A stretch of DNA of 64,000 bases from positions 128,001-192,000 of the forward strand of contig CAVUKB010000010.1 in the NCBI GenBank assembly GCA_963741955.1. Direction: 5' to 3'. The notes beneath the pieces were generated by a model, which was not told where the DNA came from, did not search any database, and saw only the letters and a program-made list of their open reading frames with translations. Every line of letters starts with the position of its first letter. Position 1 is the first letter of the stretch. Position numbers and translations under genes: made by a program. Of this stretch, positions 1-11,478 are shown piece by piece. Source of the DNA: an uncultured Acidobacteriota bacterium. GTDB taxonomy: Bacteria; Acidobacteriota; Thermoanaerobaculia; Gp7-AA8.

Positions 1-762
1 ACCAGTTCCAATCCCTATTTCTGCGGAAGCTGCCACGACATGGGGACCTACTTCGCCAACTGGAAGGACTCGCCCCACGCCCGTGCGGAAGTCAGCTGCG
101 ATCGCTGCCACTACGAACCGGGAGTCGGTGGATTCGTCAGAGCGAAGATCCGCGGCACCTCGGAGCTCGTCACTACCCTCACCGGCACGCAGCGCCCGAA
201 ACCGGTTGCGGAAGTCACGAATGACCGCTGCCTCGCGTGTCACCCGATGGCGAAGCTCGGGAAGACCATTCGGGTCGCGGACAGCTGGAACTTCAATCAT
301 GTGCGGCACCTGGCCGCGCCGTTGACTCGAGGCCCCGCGAAGCTGCGATGCACCAGCTGCCACACCGACGTGGGAAGTGCGACTCATTTCGCGGTCGACA
401 CGAACGCGTGTTTCACCTGTCACTTCGAGACCTCCGCATCCGCGCGACTCGCGGCCAGCGTCGGTTGCATCGGATGCCATGACCTTCCTGGATCGAAGAG
501 CCGCTTCGATCACGTCGCCGCAGGCATCGAGAGAAACGACGACACGTGCGCGTCTTGTCACGATTCCGCATCGAGGGGAACCATGCTGGTCGAGATCCGC
601 CAGTGCCGGCACTGCCATGAGGAAAGCGGACGCGATCTTCTGAACGCGGCCGACGTACACGCCATTCACGATCTTCACGTCACCGGAAAGGGAGTGGGAT
701 GCGACTGGTGCCACGGGGTCATTCAGCACGAGAAAGTTGACACGAAACTCGCCATGAAGTAG
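1..762 (+). CDS. Multiheme cytochrome c (NapC/NirT-like N-terminal part plus further heme repeats), 5'-truncated
   Basis: Frame 1 is open from base 1 (TSSNPYFCGSCHDM...). Nine CxxCH motifs: CGSCH, CDRCH, CLACH, CTSCH, CFTCH, CIGCH, CASCH, CRHCH, CDWCH. 'WKDSPH...VSCxxCH' is typical of NapC/NirT-type domains. Confidence 0.9.
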   Translation, partial: TSSNPYFCGSCHDMGTYFANWKDSPHARAEVSCDRCHYEPGVGGFVRAKIRGTSELVTTLTGTQRPKPVAEVTNDRCLACHPMAKLGKTIRVADSWNFNHVRHLAAPLTRGPAKLRCTSCHTDVGSATHFAVDTNACFTCHFETSASARLAASVGCIGCHDLPGSKSRFDHVAAGIERNDDTCASCHDSASRGTMLVEIRQCRHCHEESGRDLLNAADVHAIHDLHVTGKGVGCDWCHGVIQHEKVDTKLAMK

Positions 763-766
763 TCAA

Positions 767-785
767 CTTGAGAAACTATTTCAAG
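767..785. promoter_or_regulatory. Candidate MarR operator, inverted repeat CTTGA-N9-TCAAG
   Basis: AT-rich dyad cttgagaaactatttcaag ending 14 nt before the MarR ATG. Confidence 0.4.
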
Positions 786-799
786 GCGAAAGGGAACAT

Positions 800-1420
800 A
801 TGGTGAAGACCTCCGCGAAAGGGTGGATTGGAGAGTTTCTCGGGAGCGCGCACATTTTTGCGTCGGCTGTCGAGGACGTGCTCGAGAGAAAGATTCTCGA
901 TGAAGTGGCGGGCAAGCAGATCACCCACTCTCAGTTCCGTCTTCTCAAGATGGTCGAGCTCGCGGACACCCAGACCATCCGCGACGTGGCGATCTTTCTC
1001 GGGATCAGCAATGCGGCTGCGAGCAAGGCGGTGGACAAACTGGTGAAGAAGCACTTTCTGCTGCGGGAAGAAGCAGAGGTCGACCGGCGCGAGATCCGTC
1101 TCTCTCTCACCGACTCGAGCCGGAAGATCCTCGCCGATTACGACCGGGCACGAGACGAGAAGCTCGCGCGGATCTTCTCGGATTTTTCTTCCGACCAGTT
1201 GAAGGACGCTTCCATCCTTCTCGATCGTCTCTCCGCGGGTCTGGTGGACCACCACGACAATCCCGACGATCTCTGTCTCCAGTGCGGCATCTATTTCCGG
1301 CAGAGATGCGTCGTCCGTGAGCTCGCGAAGAGGGACTGTTTCTTCCACCAGAACCGCGCCGCGCGCCGCGGCAGGGTGGCCGATGTGGAGCCTTTGCCGA
1401 GTACGGTTGAATCGGAGTAG
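800..1420 (+). CDS. MarR-family winged-helix regulator with C-terminal Cys-rich extension
   Basis: 'ITHSQFRLL..TIRDVAIFLGISNAAASKAVDKLVKKHFLLREEAEVDRREIRLSLT' MarR wHTH with DRR wing; C-x2-C-x7-C-x9-C-x2-H tail. Confidence 0.85.
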   Translation: MVKTSAKGWIGEFLGSAHIFASAVEDVLERKILDEVAGKQITHSQFRLLKMVELADTQTIRDVAIFLGISNAAASKAVDKLVKKHFLLREEAEVDRREIRLSLTDSSRKILADYDRARDEKLARIFSDFSSDQLKDASILLDRLSAGLVDHHDNPDDLCLQCGIYFRQRCVVRELAKRDCFFHQNRAARRGRVADVEPLPSTVESE

Positions 1421-1483: not shown

Positions 1484-1750
1484 ATGTGCCTCGCGGTACC
1501 GGGAAAGATTCTGACCAGGGAGATGAAGAACGGGTCGCTCACCGCGCGGGTGCGGTTCGGTGGGATCACCCGCGAGGCATACCTCGATTTCGTGCCGGAA
1601 GCCGGCGTGGGGGACTACGTGATGGTCCACGTCGGGTTCGCGATCAGCCGGGTCGACGAAGAAGAAGCGCAACGCACGTACCGGATTCTCGAGAGCATGG
1701 GTCTTCTGGAGGGTGAGCTCGGTCCCGGCGAAGAGACTGTCGAATCATGA
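1484..1750 (+). CDS. hypC: Hydrogenase maturation chaperone HypC
   Basis: MCLAVPGKI N-terminus, GDYVMVHVGFAIS motif; GGAG RBS upstream of ATG 1484. Confidence 0.97.
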   Translation: MCLAVPGKILTREMKNGSLTARVRFGGITREAYLDFVPEAGVGDYVMVHVGFAISRVDEEEAQRTYRILESMGLLEGELGPGEETVES

Positions 1751-1820: not shown

Positions 1821-2918
1821 GTGAAATACATCGACGAATACCGCGACGAGAAGATCGCGCGATCGCTGGTCGAGCGCATCCGGCGCCGGGTGACTCGCCC
1901 GGAGGTACTGATGGAGATCTGCGGCGGGCAGACTCACACGCTGATGCGCTACGGCATCGACGAGATGCTGCCGCCCGAGATCGAGCTGGTCCACGGACCG
2001 GGGTGCCCGGTCTGTGTCACACCGCTGGAGACGCTCGACAAGGCGATCGAGATCGCCTCCCTTCCGGACGCCACGCTCGTCTCCTACGGGGACATGTTGC
2101 GTGTTCCCGGCTCCCGCTCGGATCTGTTCCGGATCAAAGCGGAAGGAGGCGACGTTCGAATCGTTTACTCGCCGGCGGAAGCGGTGAAGATCGCGCGTTC
2201 CAATCCGGAGCGGCGGGTGGTCTTCTTCGGCGTCGGCTTCGAGACCACTGCTCCCGCGAACGCGATGGCCGTCTACCTCGCGAAACGCGAAGGGCTGAGA
2301 AACTTCTCGATGCTGGTCTCGCACGTCCTCGTCCCGCCCGCGATCCGTCTCCTCCTCGAGTCGAAGTCGAACCGGGTGCAGGGCTTCATCGCTCCCGGTC
2401 ACGTCTGTACCGTGGTCGGCTATGCGGATTACGAAACGCTTGCGAGAGATTACCGGGTGCCGATGGTGATCGGAGGTTTCGAGCCGGTCGATCTTCTCGA
2501 GGCGATTGCCATGCTCGTCGATCAGCTCGAAGACGGACGTTACGAGGTCGAGAACCAGTACGTCCGCTCCGTCGGATACCGCGGCAATATCCCCGCCCAG
2601 CAGCTGATGGAAGAAGTCTTCGAAGTCTGCGACCGGAAGTGGCGGGGAATCGGATCGATCCCGATGAGTGGGTTCGCCATCCGGCCGGAGTACGCCGCCT
2701 ACGATGCGGAGAAGATCTTTCCGCTCGAGAGCATCACCGCCGAGGAGCCGCCGGAGTGCATCAGCGCACTGGTGCTGCAGGGGCTTCGCAAACCGATCCA
2801 CTGTCCCGTGTTCGCCACGCGATGCACGCCGGAGATGCCCATGGGAGCTCCGATGGTCTCTGCGGAGGGTGCCTGCGCCGCGTACTACCACTACCGCCGT
2901 CACGCCGCCGCCGGATGA
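1821..2918 (+). CDS. hypD: Hydrogenase maturation protein HypD
   Basis: [27 protein letters not shown] and EGACAAYY motifs. Confidence 0.98.
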
Positions 2919-2926
2919 GGTGAGTC

Positions 2927-3985
2927 ATGTCCGATGCCGTATCGATTGAGAATTTTGCCTGTCCGGTTCCGATCGCCAGACGCGATCGCGTCCTTCTCGG
3001 CCACGGCAGCGGAGGCAAGCTGAGCGCCGAGCTCCTGTCGGAGCTTTTCCTCCCGACCTTTTCGAACGACGTGCTCGGGAGAATGGATGACCAGGCGATC
3101 GTCGATGTCGAAGGCGTTCGAATCGCGTTCACCACCGACAGCTTCGTGGTCAAGCCGCTCTTCTTTCCCGGAGGGGACATCGGCTCGCTCGCCGTGCACG
3201 GCACGATCAACGATCTTGCGATGGGAGGCGCGAAGCCTCTTTTCCTCAGCGTCGCCTACATCATCGAGGAAGGACTGGAGATGGAGGTCCTGCGCCGGCT
3301 GACGGAGTCGGTGCAGCGCGCGGCGGAGGCTGCGGGCGTGACCGTGGTGACGGGCGATACGAAGGTGGTGGAGAAGGGGAGTGGCGACGGGCTCTTCATC
3401 AACACGTCGGGGATCGGAGTGGTTCCGAAGGATCGCGATCTCTCTGCTTCGCACGCCCGTCCGGGGGACCGAGTGATCCTCAGCGGCTCGATCGGCGATC
3501 ACGGAATCGCGATCATGACCCGTCGCGAAGGTCTCGAGTTCGAGAGCGACATCGAGAGCGATTCGGCGGCGCTGCACGGTTTGACTGCCCGGATGCTGAA
3601 AGCATCGAGCAACATCCGCTGCATGCGCGATCCGACGCGCGGGGGCCTGTCGAGCACGTGCAACGAGATCGCCGCCTCCTCCGCAGTCGGGATCACCCTC
3701 GACGAGCGCACCATTCCGGTTCGGGAGGAAGTCCAGGGCGCGTGCGAGCTTCTCGGGCTCGACCCGCTGTACGTCGCGAACGAGGGGAAACTCGTGGCGA
3801 TCGTCGATCCTGCGGACGCGGATCGGGTGATCGAGGCGATGCGGTGCGACCCGCTGGGTCGCGAGGCGCGGATCATCGGGACGGTGACCGGCGACTCGCC
3901 CGGCCTGGTGATCATGCGCACCCGTTTCGGGACCAGCAGGATCGTGGACATGCTCGCCGGCGACCAGCTGCCGAGGATCTGCTGA
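2927..3985 (+). CDS. hypE: Carbamoyl dehydratase HypE
   Basis: HGSGG, TTDSFVV, GDTKVV, MRDPTRGG and C-terminal LPRIC. Confidence 0.98.
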   Translation: MSDAVSIENFACPVPIARRDRVLLGHGSGGKLSAELLSELFLPTFSNDVLGRMDDQAIVDVEGVRIAFTTDSFVVKPLFFPGGDIGSLAVHGTINDLAMGGAKPLFLSVAYIIEEGLEMEVLRRLTESVQRAAEAAGVTVVTGDTKVVEKGSGDGLFINTSGIGVVPKDRDLSASHARPGDRVILSGSIGDHGIAIMTRREGLEFESDIESDSAALHGLTARMLKASSNIRCMRDPTRGGLSSTCNEIAASSAVGITLDERTIPVREEVQGACELLGLDPLYVANEGKLVAIVDPADADRVIEAMRCDPLGREARIIGTVTGDSPGLVIMRTRFGTSRIVDMLAGDQLPRIC

Positions 3986-3993
3986 GGAGAACG

Positions 3994-4341
3994 ATGCACG
4001 AGCTGGGAATTGCTGCCGCTCTGCTCGACGCGATCCGCGTCGAAGTCGCGAAGCACCCGGGCGGACGCGCGTCCAGAGTCGGCATCCGGATCGGCGAGAT
4101 CAGCGGAGTCGATCCCGACGCTCTCGGTTTCAGTTTCGAATGCCTTCTCTCCGACTCCGGTCTCGCTCCTCTGCAGCTGGAAATCGAGACCTGTCCCCGA
4201 ATTCAGAAATGCAGCTCGTGCGGGCATCGCTTCGACGTGGTCGATCTCGATACCCGCTGTCCATCATGCGCTGAGCGATTGACCGAATGTGTCGGCGGGA
4301 CGGAGCTCGATCTCGCCTGGCTGGAGGTAGAACGACCATGA
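3994..4341 (+). CDS. hypA: Nickel metallochaperone HypA
   Basis: MHELGIA start after GAGGAG RBS; CSSC...CPSC zinc site; GTEL. Confidence 0.95.
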   Translation: MHELGIAAALLDAIRVEVAKHPGGRASRVGIRIGEISGVDPDALGFSFECLLSDSGLAPLQLEIETCPRIQKCSSCGHRFDVVDLDTRCPSCAERLTECVGGTELDLAWLEVERP

Positions 4342-5015
4342 CCCGAATCGCGATGGAAGGAAAGATTCTCAACGAGAACCAGCGCATCGCCGCGGAGCTT
4401 CGCGAGCGATATGAAGCGAACGGTCTGCTGACCCTCAATCTCATCAGCTCTCCCGGCGCCGGAAAGACGTCGCTGCTCGAGAAGACTCTGCAGCGATTCG
4501 ACCGCGCTCGACGCGTCGCCCTCCTGACCGGAGACATCCAGACGGATCTCGACGCCGGCCGGCTGGCCCGTTTCGGATTTCCGGTCCGGCAGATCACGAC
4601 CAGCGGCGCGTGCCATCTCGACGCGAAAATGGTCGAGCGGGCACTGGATGGATGGGATCTCGGCACACTCGAGCTTCTTCTGATCGAGAACGTCGGCAAT
4701 CTCGTCTGTCCCTCCAGCTTCGACCTCGGCGAAGAGTCGAAAATCGTGGTGTTCAGCGTCGCCGAGGGGGAGGAAAAGCCGCTCAAGTATCCGGGGACCT
4801 TCGCGCGGGCGGAACTGGTGATCATCAACAAGATCGACCTTCTGGGTCATGTGCCGTTCGACATCGAAAAGGCACGCGAGAATACCGAGCGAAGCAATCC
4901 CGGAGTCCGGGTGATCGAGCTCTCGTGCACCACCGGGGACGGGATCGCGGAATGGGAATCGTGGATCGAGGAGAAGCTCGGCGCGAAACGCGATCTCACT
5001 GCGGTGGTCCACTGA
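4338..5015 (+). CDS. hypB: Nickel-insertion GTPase HypB
   Basis: SSPGAGKT P-loop, CHLDA, ENVGNLVCP, NKIDL; ATGA overlap with hypA; no N-terminal His-rich region. Confidence 0.97.
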   Translation: MTRIAMEGKILNENQRIAAELRERYEANGLLTLNLISSPGAGKTSLLEKTLQRFDRARRVALLTGDIQTDLDAGRLARFGFPVRQITTSGACHLDAKMVERALDGWDLGTLELLLIENVGNLVCPSSFDLGEESKIVVFSVAEGEEKPLKYPGTFARAELVIINKIDLLGHVPFDIEKARENTERSNPGVRVIELSCTTGDGIAEWESWIEEKLGAKRDLTAVVH

Positions 5016-5040: not shown

Positions 5041-7341
5041 ATGCCGGATCATTCCCATCTGATTGTCGAGCCCTCGATGAGAAAGTCGATCGAGGTCGGC
5101 GGGATCGTGCAGGGAGTCGGATTCCGTCCTTTCATCCACCGCCTGGCATCGTCGTGCGGCGTGAACGGCTCGGTCGGGAACACTGCACGTGGTGTGACCA
5201 TCGAGATCGAGGGGACGGGATCGGCGCTGCAGAGTTTTCTCGAGCGGCTCCCTGCGGAGCTGCCGCCGCTCGCGCGAATCACCAGATTCGCGGTGCGTGA
5301 TCTTCCGGCGACCGGAGAGACCGGATTCCAGATCGTCGCCAGCAGTCACGAAGCTTCGGCTTCGGTGCTCGTCTCGCCGGACATCGCGGTCTGTCCCGAT
5401 TGTCTCCGGGAAATGTTCGACCCGGCCGACCGCCGCTACCGCTACCCGCTCATCAACTGCACCAACTGCGGCCCGCGGTTCACCATCATCCGCCGGCTTC
5501 CGTACGACCGTCCGAACACCTCCATGGACCGGTTTCCGATGTGCGACGAATGCAGGCGCGAGTACGAGGATCCGACGGACCGACGGTTCCACGCGCAACC
5601 GAACGCGTGCTGGGAGTGTGGCCCGCGTCTAGACTGGTGGGATTCCGCAGGATCGCGAATCGAGTGCGATGACCCGATCGCTGCTGCTGCCGCAGCGCTC
5701 GCGCGAGGAGAGATCGTCGCGATCAAAGGGCTGGGAGGATTTCACCTTGCGGTCGACGCGACGAATCGCGAGGCAGTTCAGCGGTTGCGTGAACGGAAGG
5801 GACGGGTGGACAAACCGTTCGCGGTCATGGTACCGGCAATCGATGCCGCGAGAGCGCTCTGCGAGATCGGGTCAGGTGCCACCGAGCTCCTCTCGCCCCA
5901 GCGTCCGATCGTCCTGATGCCGTGGAAGCGGTCCACGGAGGTGGCTGAAGCGGTCGCTCCGCGAAGCGTCACCCTCGGATTGTTCCTTCCCTACACTCCG
6001 ATGCAGTTTCTTCTGTTTGCGGCGGGTGCTCCGCAGGCCCTGGTGATGACCAGCGCAAACGTGAGCGAAGAGCCGATCGCGATAGACAACCGGGACGCGG
6101 TCGCGCGGCTCGGGGGTATCGCGGATTCGTTTCTGGTGCACGATCGCGACATTCTGAGGCGGTGCGACGATACGGTGATGCGGCTGGCCGGAGGAAGTCC
6201 GCGGCAGGTGCGGCGCTCACGCGGATTCGTACCGGCGCCGATCGCCCTCCACTGCGAAGTCCCATCCGTGCTCGCCGTCGGTGCGGAGCTCAAGAACAGC
6301 GTCTGCATCACGCGGGGGAACGAAGCGATGCTCAGCCAGCACGTCGGAGACATCGAGAACCTCGAGGCGTTCCGGTTCTTCGAAGAAGTGATCGCCCACA
6401 TGAAGCAGGTGTTCGAGATCGACCCGGAGATCGTGGCGTGCGATCTTCATCCCGACTACTTTCCTTCCAGGTGGGCGCGATCGCTGGAGGGAAAGACCAT
6501 CGTCGAAGTGCAGCACCATCACGCTCACGTCGCGAGCTGCATGGCCGAGAACGGCCTCACCGGAAAGGTGATCGGAATCGCGCTCGATGGCACCGGCTAC
6601 GGAACGGACGGAACCATCTGGGGCGGCGAGATCCTGGTCGCAGACTACGCGTCCTTCGATCGTGTCGCGAGTTTCGAGGAGACGCCGATGCCCGGAGGCG
6701 AGGCGGCGATCCGTCAGCCATGGCGAATGGCGCTGGCTCACCTGGACCGGAGCTACGGCCGGGATCTGTTCAATCTGGAGATACCTTTCGTCCGGCAGCT
6801 CGACCGGGGCAAAGCCACGACTCTCCTCGGGATGATCTCGCAGCGATTCAACTCTCCCGTGACGACGAGCTGCGGCCGTCTGTTCGACGCGGTTGCAGCA
6901 CTCATCGGTGTCCGCGAGAGCGTCAACTACGAAGCACAGGCGGCCATCGAGCTGGAGGCGGTCGCGAGCGAGGAGTTTCACGGAAGCTATGCCGCGGACG
7001 TCCACGAGGGACGGGAGAGGCTGGTGATCGGCACAGCGCCGCTGATCGAGGCCATCGTCGGGGATCTGCGTCGGAACGTGCCCGCACCAGTCATCTCGAG
7101 CCGCTTTCACCGCGGCATCATCGAGGCTCTCGCACGCTGCTGCCGGATCATCGGTTCCAGAACGGGCCTCCGGCGGGTCTGCCTGAGCGGTGGAAGCTTT
7201 CAGAACCGGATTCTGCTCGAAGGGGTGATCGAGGAGCTGACCGGGGATCGGTTCGAGGTATTCACGCACGCCTCGGTTCCCACCGGCGATGGCGGCATCG
7301 CGCTGGGTCAGGCGATGGTGGCCGCCGCGCGGATGAAATGA
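5041..7341 (+). CDS. hypF: Carbamoyltransferase HypF
   Basis: Acylphosphatase GIVQGVGFRPF, zinc fingers (CPDC/CTNCGPR, CDEC/CWECGP), KGLGGFHL, QHHHAH, DGTGYG, GDGGIALGQA. Confidence 0.98.
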   Translation: MPDHSHLIVEPSMRKSIEVGGIVQGVGFRPFIHRLASSCGVNGSVGNTARGVTIEIEGTGSALQSFLERLPAELPPLARITRFAVRDLPATGETGFQIVASSHEASASVLVSPDIAVCPDCLREMFDPADRRYRYPLINCTNCGPRFTIIRRLPYDRPNTSMDRFPMCDECRREYEDPTDRRFHAQPNACWECGPRLDWWDSAGSRIECDDPIAAAAAALARGEIVAIKGLGGFHLAVDATNREAVQRLRERKGRVDKPFAVMVPAIDAARALCEIGSGATELLSPQRPIVLMPWKRSTEVAEAVAPRSVTLGLFLPYTPMQFLLFAAGAPQALVMTSANVSEEPIAIDNRDAVARLGGIADSFLVHDRDILRRCDDTVMRLAGGSPRQVRRSRGFVPAPIALHCEVPSVLAVGAELKNSVCITRGNEAMLSQHVGDIENLEAFRFFEEVIAHMKQVFEIDPEIVACDLHPDYFPSRWARSLEGKTIVEVQHHHAHVASCMAENGLTGKVIGIALDGTGYGTDGTIWGGEILVADYASFDRVASFEETPMPGGEAAIRQPWRMALAHLDRSYGRDLFNLEIPFVRQLDRGKATTLLGMISQRFNSPVTTSCGRLFDAVAALIGVRESVNYEAQAAIELEAVASEEFHGSYAADVHEGRERLVIGTAPLIEAIVGDLRRNVPAPVISSRFHRGIIEALARCCRIIGSRTGLRRVCLSGGSFQNRILLEGVIEELTGDRFEVFTHASVPTGDGGIALGQAMVAAARMK

Positions 7342-8151: not shown

Positions 8152-9057
8152 ATGAATTCTCCCGTAAAGACATTCTCACTTCTCGTCGTCACCCTCTGCA
8201 TTGCGACGCTCGCCCTCGCCGCGGAGCCTGTTGCGTTTCGCGCCGAGGTGTCGGGCTCGGGACGCCCGATGATCCTCATCCCGGGGCTGGCGTGTCCGGG
8301 TTCCGTCTGGAGCTCGACCGTTTCCCACTTCGAGAATCGATATGAGATGCACGTGCTGACTCTGGGCGGATTCGCCGGACAACCTGCCGTCGGTGGGCCG
8401 TTCGTTTCCACGATGACCGATGCGATCGCCCGCTACATCCGCACTCACGAGCTCGACCATCCGGTGATCGTCGGCCACTCGATCGGAGGTCTGATCGCCT
8501 ATTCGGTCGCGTCGAAGTATCCCGATCTGGTCGGACCGGTGATCGCAGTGGACGGGGTTCCGTTCCTTCCCGCGCTGCAGAATCCCGCTGCCACGCCGGA
8601 GGCTGCCGCGCCGTTCGCCGACGGCATCCGGCAGACGTACGAGAACCTTTCCGCGGAAGAGTTCGCGAAGCGGAATCGGGCCGCGCTGAGCTCGATGATC
8701 ACCGATCCGGCGGAAGTCGACGCGGTGGCCGGCCCGAGCGCGAAATCGGATCGCGCCACGGTTGCCGAAGCGGTTTATGAAGCGATGACGACGGACTTGC
8801 GAGACGAGGTTGCGAAGATCAGGCAGCCGGTTCTTCTCATTGCGGCGGTCCCCGCGGACGTTCCGGAAGAGTTGCGCGAGCCGCTCGTCGCGGCGTACGG
8901 GGCGGAAATCGCGAATATCCCGGATCATCGCCTCGTTGTCGCGAAGACGAGACACTTCGTGATGCTGGACGCGCCGAAGTTCTTCTTCCGGACGGTCGAG
9001 TCGTTTCTCGATGGGCCGGCTGGTACGCCGGTGCGTGGAAGCGGTGACGGACGATGA
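8152..9057 (+). CDS. Secreted alpha/beta hydrolase
   Basis: Signal peptide (..LALAA), IPGL oxyanion region, GHSIGG nucleophile elbow, C-terminal RHFVMLD His. Confidence 0.88.
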   Translation: MNSPVKTFSLLVVTLCIATLALAAEPVAFRAEVSGSGRPMILIPGLACPGSVWSSTVSHFENRYEMHVLTLGGFAGQPAVGGPFVSTMTDAIARYIRTHELDHPVIVGHSIGGLIAYSVASKYPDLVGPVIAVDGVPFLPALQNPAATPEAAAPFADGIRQTYENLSAEEFAKRNRAALSSMITDPAEVDAVAGPSAKSDRATVAEAVYEAMTTDLRDEVAKIRQPVLLIAAVPADVPEELREPLVAAYGAEIANIPDHRLVVAKTRHFVMLDAPKFFFRTVESFLDGPAGTPVRGSGDGR

Positions 9058-10241
9058 GCACGACCTGGAATCAGATCGAGGCGGCTCTTCCCCGCGGATT
9101 CCAGCCGAACGCGCTCGATCAGGCGCTGGAGGAAGAGGTCCGCGCGGCTGCAAAGGGTGATTCGGACGCCTTCGGCCGGATCGTCTCCGCCTCGAGCCGT
9201 ATGGTCTGCAGCATCGCTCTCGCGATCGTCCGTGATCTCCACGCCAGCGAAGACGTGGCACAGGAAGTCTACGCGATGGCGTGGAGGGACGTCGGCAAGC
9301 TCCGGAACCCTCAGAGCTTCCTCCCCTGGCTTCGTCAGATGACCCGGAATCGTGCGCACTCGTATCTGCGGGATCAGGTGTCGCGACACGCGCCGCTCTC
9401 CGACGAAGCGGCGGAGGGACACCCGGATCCGCGCGCAGGTGCCGAGGTTCGCCTCATTCGCAAGGAGGAAATGCGCCTCCTCGACGAGGTGATCGACTCG
9501 CTTCCGGACGACGCTCGTGAAGTCGTGACCCTCTACTACCGCGAGGGGGAGTCGATCCGTCAGGTGGCCGCGCTGCTCGGGCTCCGCGAGGACGCCGTGC
9601 GTCAACGTCTCTCTCGCGCTCGGGCTCTCATCCGTGAGGAGGTTCTCCGGAAGAGCGGCCGCGTCCTGGCGAAGACGGCGACCGGTGCGGCATTCACGAC
9701 CGTGGTCCTCGCCGCGCTGACCACCACCGCGCCGGCTGCCACGGCGGCGACCGGGGCCGCGGCCGCGTCGGCGCTCAAGGGAGCGTCGCTTCTGGTGAAG
9801 TTTCTCGCGGCACTCGGTTCCGCCTCGCTCGGGATCGTCCTCGGAGTGGGAGCCGTTCTCTTCGACGTGAGGAAGGAATACGCGCACGCGATCGACGCGC
9901 GGGAGCGTCGTGCCGTCGTGCGATTCGGCTTACTGAGCTCCGGAACGATGGTTCTCGTCGTGATCGGATTCACGATGGCAGGTCTATGGAAAAGTCTGAC
10001 CCTTCTGATGCTGACCCAGAGCTTCTTCATCATCGTCATGGCGTGGCTCTACCGGGTGCGCCTTCCGGCCCTCCGTGCGCGTCGCCTCGCGGAAGAAGCG
10101 GCGGCCGATCCGGCCCGCGGCAGACGGGCCCGGCGCCGCGATGTTCTCTGCAGCGTGCTCGGATTCTGGGGTGGATTGATCGTCTCGACCGCGACCGTGG
10201 TCTGGGTGGCATTCTCGAGCGGGATGGCTCATCTCCCATGA
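9054..10241 (+). CDS. ECF sigma-70 factor fused to an Ala-rich linker and a C-terminal multi-pass membrane domain
   Basis: Region 2 (GDSDAFGRIV, SEDVAQEV, FLPWLRQMTRN), region 4 (LPDDAREVVTLYYREGESIRQVAALLG..VRQRLSRAR), then about four hydrophobic segments. Confidence 0.88.
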   Translation: MSTTWNQIEAALPRGFQPNALDQALEEEVRAAAKGDSDAFGRIVSASSRMVCSIALAIVRDLHASEDVAQEVYAMAWRDVGKLRNPQSFLPWLRQMTRNRAHSYLRDQVSRHAPLSDEAAEGHPDPRAGAEVRLIRKEEMRLLDEVIDSLPDDAREVVTLYYREGESIRQVAALLGLREDAVRQRLSRARALIREEVLRKSGRVLAKTATGAAFTTVVLAALTTTAPAATAATGAAAASALKGASLLVKFLAALGSASLGIVLGVGAVLFDVRKEYAHAIDARERRAVVRFGLLSSGTMVLVVIGFTMAGLWKSLTLLMLTQSFFIIVMAWLYRVRLPALRARRLAEEAAADPARGRRARRRDVLCSVLGFWGGLIVSTATVVWVAFSSGMAHLP

Positions 10242-10563
10242 GCGGGGTACAGCGAATCGGGCCGGTTGAAAGAGAAGCAAAGACCTGACCCTGATGGCCT
10301 TTGGGATTGCGGCAAGCACACAGGCGATCTAACACAACATGTCACGCTCATAACGCCGCAATAGAACGCGGTGTGGTTCTTCGCGGTGACCTCGATCTCG
10401 ACGCATCGCTGGCATGGAGCGATGTGCCGAGTCGAGGCGCGGCGGATCGCAATCGTACCGGACGATGCGGCGCCTCGGCAGCGCGGCGTTCGACCGGGGT
10501 CTGGCTGCGACCCCTTCCGGCTCGCCCGCCTTGCCTTTCGCGCGATGCGCTCTGAGGGTGTCC

Positions 10564-11478
10564 TCATTCCAGCCCGTGCGATGAAGCGGCGAGCTCGGGA
10601 GGCTTTCGCCGGGCGGCGCGCTGCATCAGCGCGACGCCTGCGAGCACCGTCACTCCTCCGACAATCGTTGAGGGAGGGACGGGCTCGTGGAGAAGAGCGA
10701 CCGCCGCGGCGAGCGTCACCAGCGGCTCGAGATAGAGGAACGCCGCCACCTGCGAGGCCTCGACCTTCTCCAGCGCGCCGTACCAGAAGAAGTAGCCCAG
10801 GCCCGAACAGGCGACGCCGAGAAAGAGAAGTGCTCCCCAGCCGCCGGGTGAGAGGTGGCCGATCTCGAGCCAGCCTCTCTTCGCCACGAAGAAGGGAGCG
10901 AGCATCAGCCAACCGAGGAGCATCGAGCCGGCGGTTGCCTCGAGCGCGCCGAGGCGCCGGAGAATCGAGCGTGATGCGACGGTGTAGACCGCCCAGTTGA
11001 TCGTGCTCGCCAGGATCAGGAAATCGCCGCGGGTGGAGGGAAGGGGAAGCGCGAGGACGCGCAGGTCTCCACGGGTGATTACCAGGAGGGCGCCCGCCAG
11101 TCCGAAAACCAGTCCCGCCGATTTCATCGCGCCGAACCGTTCATGGAGGAAGATCGCAGCGAGAATCGCCGACCAGATCGGGATCAGTCCGATCAGCCAT
11201 CCGGTCTTGACTGCCGTCGTCATGGTCAGAGCCCACGCCTGCATCATCTGATGGACGAAGACGCCGATGAAGCCCATCAGCGCGAGGTGCGCCCAGGTCG
11301 CCGGCGGCGGGATCAGTCGCTCGCGTCGCGCGAGAAGGATCCCGTGAAGCAGCGCGGTGCCGAGCGCGAAACGGATGAAGATCAGACTGACCGGCGAGAT
11401 CTCGCGCAGCACCGATTTGGTGGCGACGAACGAGATACCCCAGAAGACGATGGCGGCGAGTGCTGCGAGTCGCGGCAT
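10564..11478 (-). CDS. DMT/EamA family transporter
   Basis: 304 aa, about 10 TM segments, FWGISFVATK, RFALG, LHER and LEPLV...LLHEP repeats. Confidence 0.92.
   Translation of the reverse strand: MPRLAALAAIVFWGISFVATKSVLREISPVSLIFIRFALGTALLHGILLARRERLIPPPATWAHLALMGFIGVFVHQMMQAWALTMTTAVKTGWLIGLIPIWSAILAAIFLHERFGAMKSAGLVFGLAGALLVITRGDLRVLALPLPSTRGDFLILASTINWAVYTVASRSILRRLGALEATAGSMLLGWLMLAPFFVAKRGWLEIGHLSPGGWGALLFLGVACSGLGYFFWYGALEKVEASQVAAFLYLEPLVTLAAAVALLHEPVPPSTIVGGVTVLAGVALMQRAARRKPPELAASSHGLE

Follow-up and report, generated by a model that had tools for sequence, protein, structure and literature searches.

A MarR-family protein with a four-cysteine tail as a candidate regulator of hydrogenase and heterodisulfide reductase modules in uncultured bacteria

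What is a MarR-type regulator doing in the middle of a hydrogenase gene cluster, and what might its cysteines sense? The question is raised by a 206-aa protein encoded by an ATG-started open reading frame (ORF) at 800..1420 (+) of a 64,000-nucleotide stretch of DNA from an uncultured Acidobacteriota bacterium. We call this whole stretch the window; it corresponds to C10:128001-192000 of its own genome (5.4 Mb, 99.1% complete). The protein, here MarR-Cys4, combines a MarR-type DNA-binding domain with a C-terminal tail in which four cysteines are spaced C159-x2-C162-x7-C170-x9-C180 (residues 151-183, 1250..1348, +). An original prediction, made from the DNA letters, placed the gene at the head of a hydrogenase maturation (hyp) operon and proposed that the tail binds a metal or an iron-sulfur (Fe-S) cluster to sense oxygen, redox state or nickel. 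We consider it slightly better than an even bet that MarR-Cys4 is an autoregulated repressor of Hdr/Mvh-type redox modules (Hdr, heterodisulfide reductase) whose Cys4 tail holds a metal centre. In its own genome it probably switches a hydrogenase and heterodisulfide-reductase cluster by redox or Fe-S status.

A MarR protein with a conserved cysteine tail

MarR-Cys4 belongs to the MarR family by both domain and fold. The translation of the ORF is as originally quoted, and Pfam MarR (PF01047) matches residues 41-99, the winged helix-turn-helix DNA-binding region (920..1096, +), with 40.8 bits against a cut-off of 24.6. PF12802 also exceeds its cut-off (32.7 versus 27 bits), and an NCBIfam scan of the protein returned MarR-type models only, all far under their cut-offs. 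The best Foldseek matches to the predicted structure are all MarR proteins (probability 1.00, target TM-scores up to 0.81). Family members are annotated in their source records as ‘MarR family transcriptional regulator’ or with automatic labels such as ‘organic hydroperoxide resistance regulator’. A literature search, with subscription journals outside its coverage, returned no description of the MarR-Cys4 subfamily. As judged from sequence, the novelty is a subfamily of MarR proteins that carries a new, putatively sensory tail and for which an operator and a regulon can be predicted.

Established regulators of hydrogenase and hyp expression are HoxA/HupR, FhlA, NikR and FNR, which the original prediction had rightly set apart as regulators of other types. 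Pfam finds only the MarR-type helix-turn-helix in MarR-Cys4, and no receiver, sigma-54 activator, ribbon-helix-helix/NikR or cyclic-nucleotide-binding/FNR domain. Membership in the NtrC-type HoxA/HupR, FhlA, NikR or FNR families was rejected because none of their domains is found.

After the last core helix the protein continues as LVDHHDNPDDLCLQCGIYFRQRCVVRELAKRDCFFHQNR (also written DHHDNPDDLCLQCGIYFRQRCVVRELAKRDCFFH), an Arg- and Lys-rich segment that contains every cysteine of the protein: C159 (nt 1274-1276), C162 (1283-1285), C170 (1307-1309) and C180 (1337-1339). Classical MarR repressors (MarR, SlyA, YusO, Rv1404, ST1710, FabT and others) share the domain and fold with MarR-Cys4, but end at about residue 140-150 without a Cys4 tail. 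They respond to organic ligands or to the oxidation of one or two cysteines elsewhere in the fold. The earlier statement that typical MarR proteins lack such a tail agrees with the solved structures: a profile search of PDB sequences returned 122 MarR-type chains, none of them aligned past profile position ∼154, and the Foldseek matches listed span 128-155 columns, that is, the MarR core, except for a single match of 186 columns with a root-mean-square deviation of 10.6.

The four cysteines are the defining feature of the family. A word-index search identified 563 proteins at E <= 1e-3 among 1500 candidates, and an exhaustive search of 50%-identity representatives identified 2378 at E <= 1e-3 and 66 at E <= 1e-30. 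The best 120 word-index matches share 53-64% identity with the window protein and are 190-234 aa long; of these, 30 close homologues were aligned, and all of them keep C159, C162, C170 and C180. A regular expression of the motif matches 119 of these 120 proteins and 119 of the 150 best 50%-identity representatives. Fourteen of the 31 motif-less representatives were aligned, full-length-range ones included, and looked truncated, frame-shifted after the third cysteine, or altered in the tail; one has Ser for the third cysteine and one has an insertion. Cysteine conservation, which the original prediction had named as a check, holds throughout the genome loci, with the motif present in 81 of 81 family ORFs (79 loci). 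In an 82-row alignment of tails whose rows were not chosen by motif, the four cysteines are the only invariant columns, the 2/7/9 spacing occurs in 78 rows, and 79 tails contain exactly four cysteines. The same columns are again the sole invariant ones in a 119-row alignment, which carries no independent weight as its rows were motif-selected. On these sequence counts, the Cys4 motif lies far beyond chance. The C-x2-H ending that was originally written into the motif has to be dropped: the trailing His is present in only 27 of the 82 rows, with Gln in 28, and the first His of the tail's ‘DHH’ is kept in only 43.

Structure prediction, also suggested as a check, yields a well-defined tail. The full-length AlphaFold2 model, built from 119 sequences, has a mean predicted local distance difference test score (pLDDT) of 92.8 and a predicted template modelling score (pTM) of 0.84. 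It places helices at residues 6-37, 43-55, 60-67 and 71-83, wing strands at 87-91/99-103, and further helices at 105-128 and 131-150. Beyond these, successive blocks of residues 151-190 are modelled on the MarR core with mean pLDDT of 89, 92, 93 and 91, as short bridges (158-159 and 179-180) and helices (171-176 and 181-194). The tail alone folds poorly (pLDDT 60, pTM 0.32), and this isolated model was left out of the fold searches. Confident at full length and poor in isolation, the predicted tail packs against the MarR core, as would fit a module coupled to the DNA-binding dimer.

The tail has no PDB match and no Pfam match above cut-off. When Pfam hits on the tail are admitted up to an E-value of 10, only GATA (PF00320) appears, at 16.8 bits under a cut-off of 26.8 and over just 16 residues around the CxxC. 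We rejected membership in the zinc ribbon or GATA families, as the profile cut-off is not reached and no other Pfam family falls on the tail. An ESM Atlas search with the tail yielded no usable feature match; by structure, the Atlas returned the MarR cluster to which the protein itself belongs (1608 members, most of them from Acidobacteriota) and otherwise sub-threshold rows.

Genomic context and a predicted operator

In its own genome the regulator gene lies within a ∼22-kb same-strand cluster with short gaps, in the order hdrC-hdrB-hdrA-mvhD-NiFe small-NiFe large-hycI-cytochrome-marR-hypCDEABF. The upstream genes encode an HdrC-like protein, an HdrB-like CCG-domain protein, a 1500-aa HdrA-like fusion, MvhD (FlpD, 185 bits), the NiFe small and large subunits, the HycI protease and a 1205-aa membrane protein. 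The cytochrome-to-marR gap is 37 nt and the marR-to-hypC gap is 63 nt. The idea that marR heads a hyp operon is correct in that hypCDEABF follows directly, but the gene sits inside the much longer hdrCBA-to-hyp cluster. Because the regulator gene is single-copy and the genome has one NiFe large-subunit gene and one hyp set, this stretch is a single self-contained hydrogenase/Hdr module, holding the genome's only [NiFe] hydrogenase. We call the hydrogenase ‘Mvh-type’ by its MvhD and HdrA neighbours, not by phylogeny. A search for sequencing runs turned up one DNA run from a soil metagenome, which may be the source, and none of RNA. The family profile finds two other MarR-like ORFs in this genome at E <= 1e-5 (35 and 28 bits), and both lack the Cys4 motif and Hdr/hydrogenase-type neighbours.

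A genome scan gave 80 loci for comparison, all from metagenome-assembled genomes (MAGs) of uncultured organisms in the Acidobacteriota, Gemmatimonadota, Actinomycetota (Acidimicrobiia), Latescibacteria and Krumholzibacteriia. Neighbouring genes were clustered and named by Pfam, and the cluster profiles were then run over all six-frame ORFs; the resulting counts refer to the same loci from which the profiles were built. An Hdr-, Mvh-, Hyp- or electron-transfer-flavoprotein (ETF)-type gene stands beside the regulator in 59 of the 80 loci. Hdr-like neighbours occur in 52 loci, HdrA in 45, Mvh/NiFe parts in 38, Hyp and NuoF-like proteins in 14 each, ETF in 11, and FeFe-like proteins in eight; 21 loci have no redox-gene neighbour. 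When the Hyp proteins of the window serve as queries, 13 loci show hyp genes in their flanks, plus one doubtful HypE-like match (28% identity). The recurrent partners are HdrA-like, CCG-domain (HdrB-like) and HdrC-like proteins, MvhD, the NiFe small and large subunits and HycI, along with NuoF-like proteins accompanied by FeFe-hydrogenase-like and DRTGG-domain proteins, and ETF alpha plus beta. Four loci have a DUF362 protein and a poly-ferredoxin as neighbours. Among the 58 loci in which both the regulator and a redox-type gene were found, the nearest such gene is <=300 bp away in 45, and on the same strand in 43 of those 45; the distances were taken from stop-to-stop ORFs and are lower bounds.

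A family tree (FastTree, midpoint-rooted, rows covering <80% of the model dropped) follows these contexts. Every member of the window protein's clade shows the order NiFe-hycI-marR-(hyp), and other clades are found in FeFe-like/Hdr, regulator-first Hdr-Mvh, ETF-Hdr and Apr-Qmo contexts. Because hyp genes occur in only 13-14 of 80 loci versus 52 with Hdr-like genes, and in view of the FeFe/NuoF, ETF-Hdr and AprBA-Qmo contexts, the common theme, as read from gene neighbourhoods, is HdrA-type redox modules and not hydrogenase maturation. The predicted synteny therefore stands for hydrogenase-related genes at large (the 59 loci above) and does not extend to hyp.

Two of these contexts deserve a brief description. 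Five loci from Bryobacterales or Acidobacteriota MAGs (L054, L061, L064, L066, L071) have an AprB/AprA context: over ∼10.6-17 kb the regulator is followed by aprB, aprA, an Ogr/Delta-like zinc-finger gene, a gene for a CxxCxxCC protein and two HdrA-like (Qmo-like) genes, with sulfite-exporter (TauE) and uroporphyrin-methylase-type genes upstream. These loci look like a dissimilatory sulfur locus under a MarR-Cys4-type regulator. In four others (L012:10549-11121, L024, L025, L028), the regulator gene adjoins a gene for a 191-aa protein with a cyclic-nucleotide-binding domain only (cluster c44), which may provide a second regulatory input.

Classical MarR repressors bind a (pseudo)palindrome over the promoter next to their own gene, and an equivalent site can be predicted in silico for MarR-Cys4. 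An exact-palindrome word count in 23 upstream regions gave nothing above shuffles. An element was recognised by eye in 16 upstream regions and written as TTAAYNNNRNTWA; this predicted operator is a long, AT-rich pseudo-palindrome with the core TTAAC-N3-GTTWA, located upstream of the regulator or its operon. The pattern matches 33 times in 30 of the 80 loci (1.26 Mb), nearly always directly upstream of the regulator gene or of an operon-starting NiFe small-subunit gene. In the own genome, the 17.5 kb upstream of and including marR contain one match against 0.01 expected; it lies at L082:3575-3587, within the divergent intergenic stretch that precedes hdrC.

A 23-column matrix trained on 29 such sites has the consensus GATAGTTAACCAGGTTTAYWATT and is also informative in columns that the pattern leaves unfixed. 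It matches with at least 17 bits in 53 of the 80 loci. In a held-out test, 30 matches of at least 17 bits fell in 24 of the 51 untrained loci, 26 of them near operon starts, compared with a mean of 0.3 matches in control DNA shuffled within 100-bp blocks. The own genome was not among the training sites, and the best of its 10.87 million positions is O1 (23 bp, C10:115570-115592, ATTGCTTAACCAGATTAATAATG, 27.5 bits), the only one to reach 27 bits; no more than three score 20 bits or higher. O1 falls within a promoter-like TTGAAA-18-AATAAT upstream of hdrC (10 of 12 promoter positions matched), where it overlaps the -35/-10 region. We found no second such promoter-like site across the cluster, and terminator-like matches in the cluster are at chance level. 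Within the 64-kb window the best matrix score, 10.2 bits with the next at 4.7, belongs to a candidate weak operator, O2 (AGTAGTCAACTTGAGAAACTATT, 758..780, no strand assigned), which lies 20 nt before the marR ATG and overlaps the cytochrome stop codon. Stronger sites occupy the position of O2 in the close relatives L003, L007, L009 and L011.

Sites upstream of the regulator gene are also present in loci without Hdr/hydrogenase neighbours (e.g., L043, L044, L048, L055, L065 and L068). Their presence where redox neighbours are missing points, at the level of sequence, to autoregulation by MarR-Cys4 itself and not to control by another factor. Two loci carry paired copies of the regulator, in tandem (L001:10001-10594 and 10630-11262) or divergent (L077:8855-9613(-) and 10001-10546(+)); both copies of each pair keep the four cysteines, and in L077 an operator site lies between them. 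Elsewhere in the own genome, the second- and third-best sites, C5:157912 (22.9 bits) and C1:153122 (21.7 bits), were rejected as regulon members because they are AT-rich intergenic positions beside unrelated-looking ORFs. They may be chance matches or further targets. The C5:157912 site has two small ORFs before it and one of 810 aa after it.

A proposed switch and its rivals

We propose that MarR-Cys4 would act as a homodimeric repressor that binds a ∼19-23-bp pseudo-palindrome with the TTAAC-N3-GTTWA core. O1 would place it in the sole sigma-70-like promoter of the hdrC-to-hypF cluster, and the weak O2 just before marR. Because O1 lies in the cluster's only promoter-like site and O2 before marR, MarR-Cys4 would regulate its own production along with that of the cell's only [NiFe] hydrogenase, the Hdr partner and the maturation proteins. 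Its tail would pack on the MarR core with the four invariant cysteines holding a metal centre, for which we would place an oxygen-labile Fe-S cluster first and a Zn(Cys)4 redox switch second. Gain, loss or oxidation of this centre would shift DNA affinity. A cluster-free or oxidised form would sit on the operator and keep the Fe-S-rich, oxygen-sensitive enzymes off, and a cluster-loaded form would release it. That the protein binds as a dimer and represses, that it holds a metal centre, what it senses and in which direction it switches are all inferences. The recurrent neighbours are without exception oxygen-sensitive enzymes very rich in Fe-S, and the signal would therefore be oxygen, redox state or Fe-S supply. 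The direction is our guess: a repressor of anaerobic-type enzymes should occupy DNA under conditions in which clusters are lost, and MarR proteins usually come off DNA once ligand is bound.

The closest parallel is ArnR of Corynebacterium glutamicum, described as a winged-helix regulator that holds a [4Fe-4S] cluster through conserved C-terminal cysteines (PMC12343034). ArnR is a constitutive dimer that controls anaerobic respiration genes, and it combines an N-terminal MarR/ArsR-like winged helix with conserved C-terminal cysteines, an arrangement like that of MarR-Cys4, for which a dimer and a cluster are predicted. Fe-S winged-helix regulators have three or four conserved cysteines as ligands, and MarR-Cys4 has four. 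By analogy, MarR-Cys4 may work like ArnR or SufR, as a winged helix with a Cys-ligated cluster. The differences are equally clear: ArnR has three cysteines (179, 193, 223) in a separate C-terminal sensory domain, reported as weakly TRAPPC3-like, whereas the four of MarR-Cys4 fall within 22 residues of a short tail that is modelled against a complete MarR core. The published Cys spacing sets the two apart, and the sensory part of MarR-Cys4 is different from, and much shorter than, that of ArnR or SufR. Their targets also differ, narK and hmp for ArnR (PMC12343034) versus the predicted hdr/mvh/hyp for MarR-Cys4.

Several observations weigh against the repressor model. Of the 80 loci, 21 are without a redox-gene neighbour, mostly Gemmatimonadota in which the regulator gene precedes era. 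Among five of these genomes that were checked, three have MvhD elsewhere, but two have no MvhD match, one of them a 2.9-Mb record. In a phylum sample of 151 genomes (regulator criterion E <= 1e-30, 21 candidates scored per genome, kin not independent), the regulator is present in six and MvhD in 56. All six regulator-bearing genomes have MvhD, which speaks for the model, but the other 50 MvhD-bearing genomes lack the regulator, so it is not needed for Hdr/Mvh in general. On the operator side, the first pattern was picked by eye, and O2 is weak, its 10.2 bits being reached by 34 of the 10.87 million positions of the own genome. The guessed direction of the switch runs counter to ArnR, an Fe-S repressor reported to bind DNA with its [4Fe-4S] cluster in place (PMC12343034). 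Finally, the tail has one CxxC knuckle and the weak, sub-cut-off GATA match, which makes Zn as compatible with the sequence as Fe-S.

This last point leads to the most serious of the alternatives, an unlikely one in our estimate though by no means negligible, in which regulator and targets are unchanged and the four cysteines hold Zn. The metal would be structural, stiffening the tail on the dimer, or would form a zinc-thiolate redox switch, which oxidation or disulfide stress would open so that the DNA is released. Cys4-Zn sites are established in regulators, also as thiol switches. The Gly after the CxxC knuckle and the GATA zinc-finger match, weak as it is, favour this reading, and the ArnR paper notes how alike the ligand sets of Fe-S and Zn are and reports that its preparations contained Zn (PMC12343034). 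The Zn-dependent MarR proteins AdcR and ZitR, whose DNA binding is set by metal, are among the nearest solved structures to MarR-Cys4. Their ligands, however, are others and belong to the core (ZitR C30/H42 mutant entry), with no C-terminal Cys4 tail involved; what they regulate is the uptake of zinc and not redox enzymes, and the NCBIfam model AdcR_fam_Zn_TF scores MarR-Cys4 at 33.1 bits, far under its cut-off of 175. The second CxxC knuckle of classical zinc ribbons is moreover missing here, the third and fourth ligands being single cysteines 9 residues apart, and the sequences examined contain zero Cys-to-His exchanges. The neighbours are consistently Fe-S-rich, oxygen-sensitive enzymes, which a cluster-based sensor fits somewhat better.

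The remaining readings are less likely still. Thiol-switch MarR proteins exist, and a metal-free tail could react through its cysteines with the disulfides, persulfides or polysulfides on which Hdr-type enzymes act, the operon thus being induced by the substrate. Hdr-like genes are indeed common neighbours (52/80 loci), and the five AprBA-Qmo loci add a sulfur-metabolism context. A precedent comes from Hyphomicrobium denitrificans, where the Cys-sensing repressors sHdrR and SoxR are reported to be encoded with heterodisulfide-reductase-like genes, and the sHdr genes to be under sHdrR, a sulfane-sulfur-responsive ArsR-type repressor (PMC12423496). These proteins differ from MarR-Cys4 in belonging to the ArsR family, in having two reactive cysteines and no metal site, in responding to sulfane sulfur and in controlling the sulfur-oxidising sHdr (PMC12423496), whereas the MarR-Cys4 context is Mvh-linked HdrABC. 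Thiol switches usually need one or two cysteines, and both the four invariant cysteines at fixed 2/7/9 spacing, a metal-site signature, and the compact, confidently modelled tail, which points to a structured site, make this reading improbable. We regard as quite improbable a signal that is instead a small molecule in the usual MarR pocket between the dimerisation and DNA-binding domains, with the tail only structural or an extra DNA contact. Most MarR proteins do respond to small ligands, the tail is Arg/Lys-rich and the operator long and AT-rich, but DNA contact needs no invariant cysteines and the varied contexts suggest no candidate ligand. Nickel sensing, which the original prediction had entertained and which would tune hyp maturation to nickel supply, is hardly credible. 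Thiolate-rich sites can bind Ni, and the window gene directly precedes hypCDEABF, including the nickel-insertion genes hypA and hypB. Against this, hyp genes lie near the regulator in only 13-14 of 80 loci versus 52 for Hdr-like genes, whole clades stand beside nickel-free systems (FeFe-hydrogenase-like/NuoF, ETF-Hdr, AprBA-Qmo and DUF362/ferredoxin), and the strong operator of the own genome is at the hdrC promoter, not at hyp.

We thus favour the autoregulated repressor with a metal centre in its tail. A bolder version of it, offered tentatively and with more doubt than confidence, is that MarR-Cys4 would be the first Fe-S-sensing MarR regulator and a dedicated, autoregulated TTAAC-N3-GTTWA master switch, found in uncultured Acidobacteriota, Gemmatimonadota, Actinomycetota and related phyla, for modules built on HdrA (flavin-based electron bifurcation). 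These modules would include the Mvh-Hdr hydrogenase, FeFe-hydrogenase-like/NuoF-HdrA, ETF-Hdr and AprBA-Qmo, and the switch would couple their expression to oxygen or Fe-S supply.

Other genes of the cluster and wider meaning

Six hyp genes follow marR on the same strand, all over their Pfam cut-offs. They are hypC (1484..1750, +; HupF_HypC, 88 bits), hypD (1821..2918, +; HypD, 498 bits), hypE (2927..3985, +; AIRS and AIRS_C, 66-73% identity to the post-hypD gene in related loci), hypA (3988..4341, +; HypA, 83.6 bits), hypB (4287..5015, +; cobW/HypB/UreG, with an uncertain start codon, the listed ORF overlapping the end of hypA) and hypF (5041..7341, +; Acylphosphatase, zf-HYPF, Sua5_yciO_yrdC, HypF_C and HypF_C_2). 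Further downstream, a 395-aa ORF (9054-10241, +) carries extracytoplasmic-function (ECF)-type sigma-70 regions 2 and 4 in its first ∼195 residues. With its long, hydrophobic C-terminal half, it may represent a fusion between a sigma factor and a membrane domain.

Upstream, the window opens within the 1205-aa protein gene (own genome C10:125145-128762), whose C-terminal part is a multihaem cytochrome c domain (1..762, +) with Pfam matches to Cytochrome_C7, Paired_CXXCH_1, Cytochrom_c3_2 and the NapC/NirT N-terminal region. The whole ORF has nine CxxCH motifs; its ∼930 N-terminal residues have no Pfam match and start with a hydrophobic stretch. A similar gene in this position occurs in just one of the 80 related loci, L003. 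The protein could wire the cytoplasmic Mvh-Hdr module to the membrane or to electron carriers outside. The HdrA-like gene (L082:5106-9605; C10:117106-121608) encodes 1500 aa with three FAD/NAD-binding Rossmann regions and several 4Fe-4S motifs, and its product looks like a fusion of several HdrA/GltD-like units; L001 has a comparable form of 1489 aa. The MvhD (FlpD) matches in seven other genomes of the phylum (G012, G030, G034, G046, G049, G050 and G109) contain one or two in-frame TGA codons, which may stand for selenocysteine or mark a gene boundary.

In soil Acidobacteriota and Gemmatimonadota, HdrA modules such as the Mvh-Hdr-type hydrogenases are widespread. Our literature search, which did not extend to subscription journals, found no account of how Mvh-Hdr or HdrA modules are regulated in these bacteria. 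MarR-Cys4 offers a testable regulator for them: a 206-aa protein with a defined 23-bp predicted operator and a predicted regulon comprising the cell's only [NiFe] hydrogenase, its Hdr partner and the maturation genes. If the tail does hold an Fe-S cluster, the MarR family would join the families of cluster-based sensors (FNR, Rrf2, SoxR, Wbl and ArnR/SufR), and would do so with a compact sensing module of about 35 residues. Because all 80 loci come from MAGs, the operator and protein sequences would also provide a practical handle on the hydrogen and sulfur metabolism of uncultured soil bacteria.

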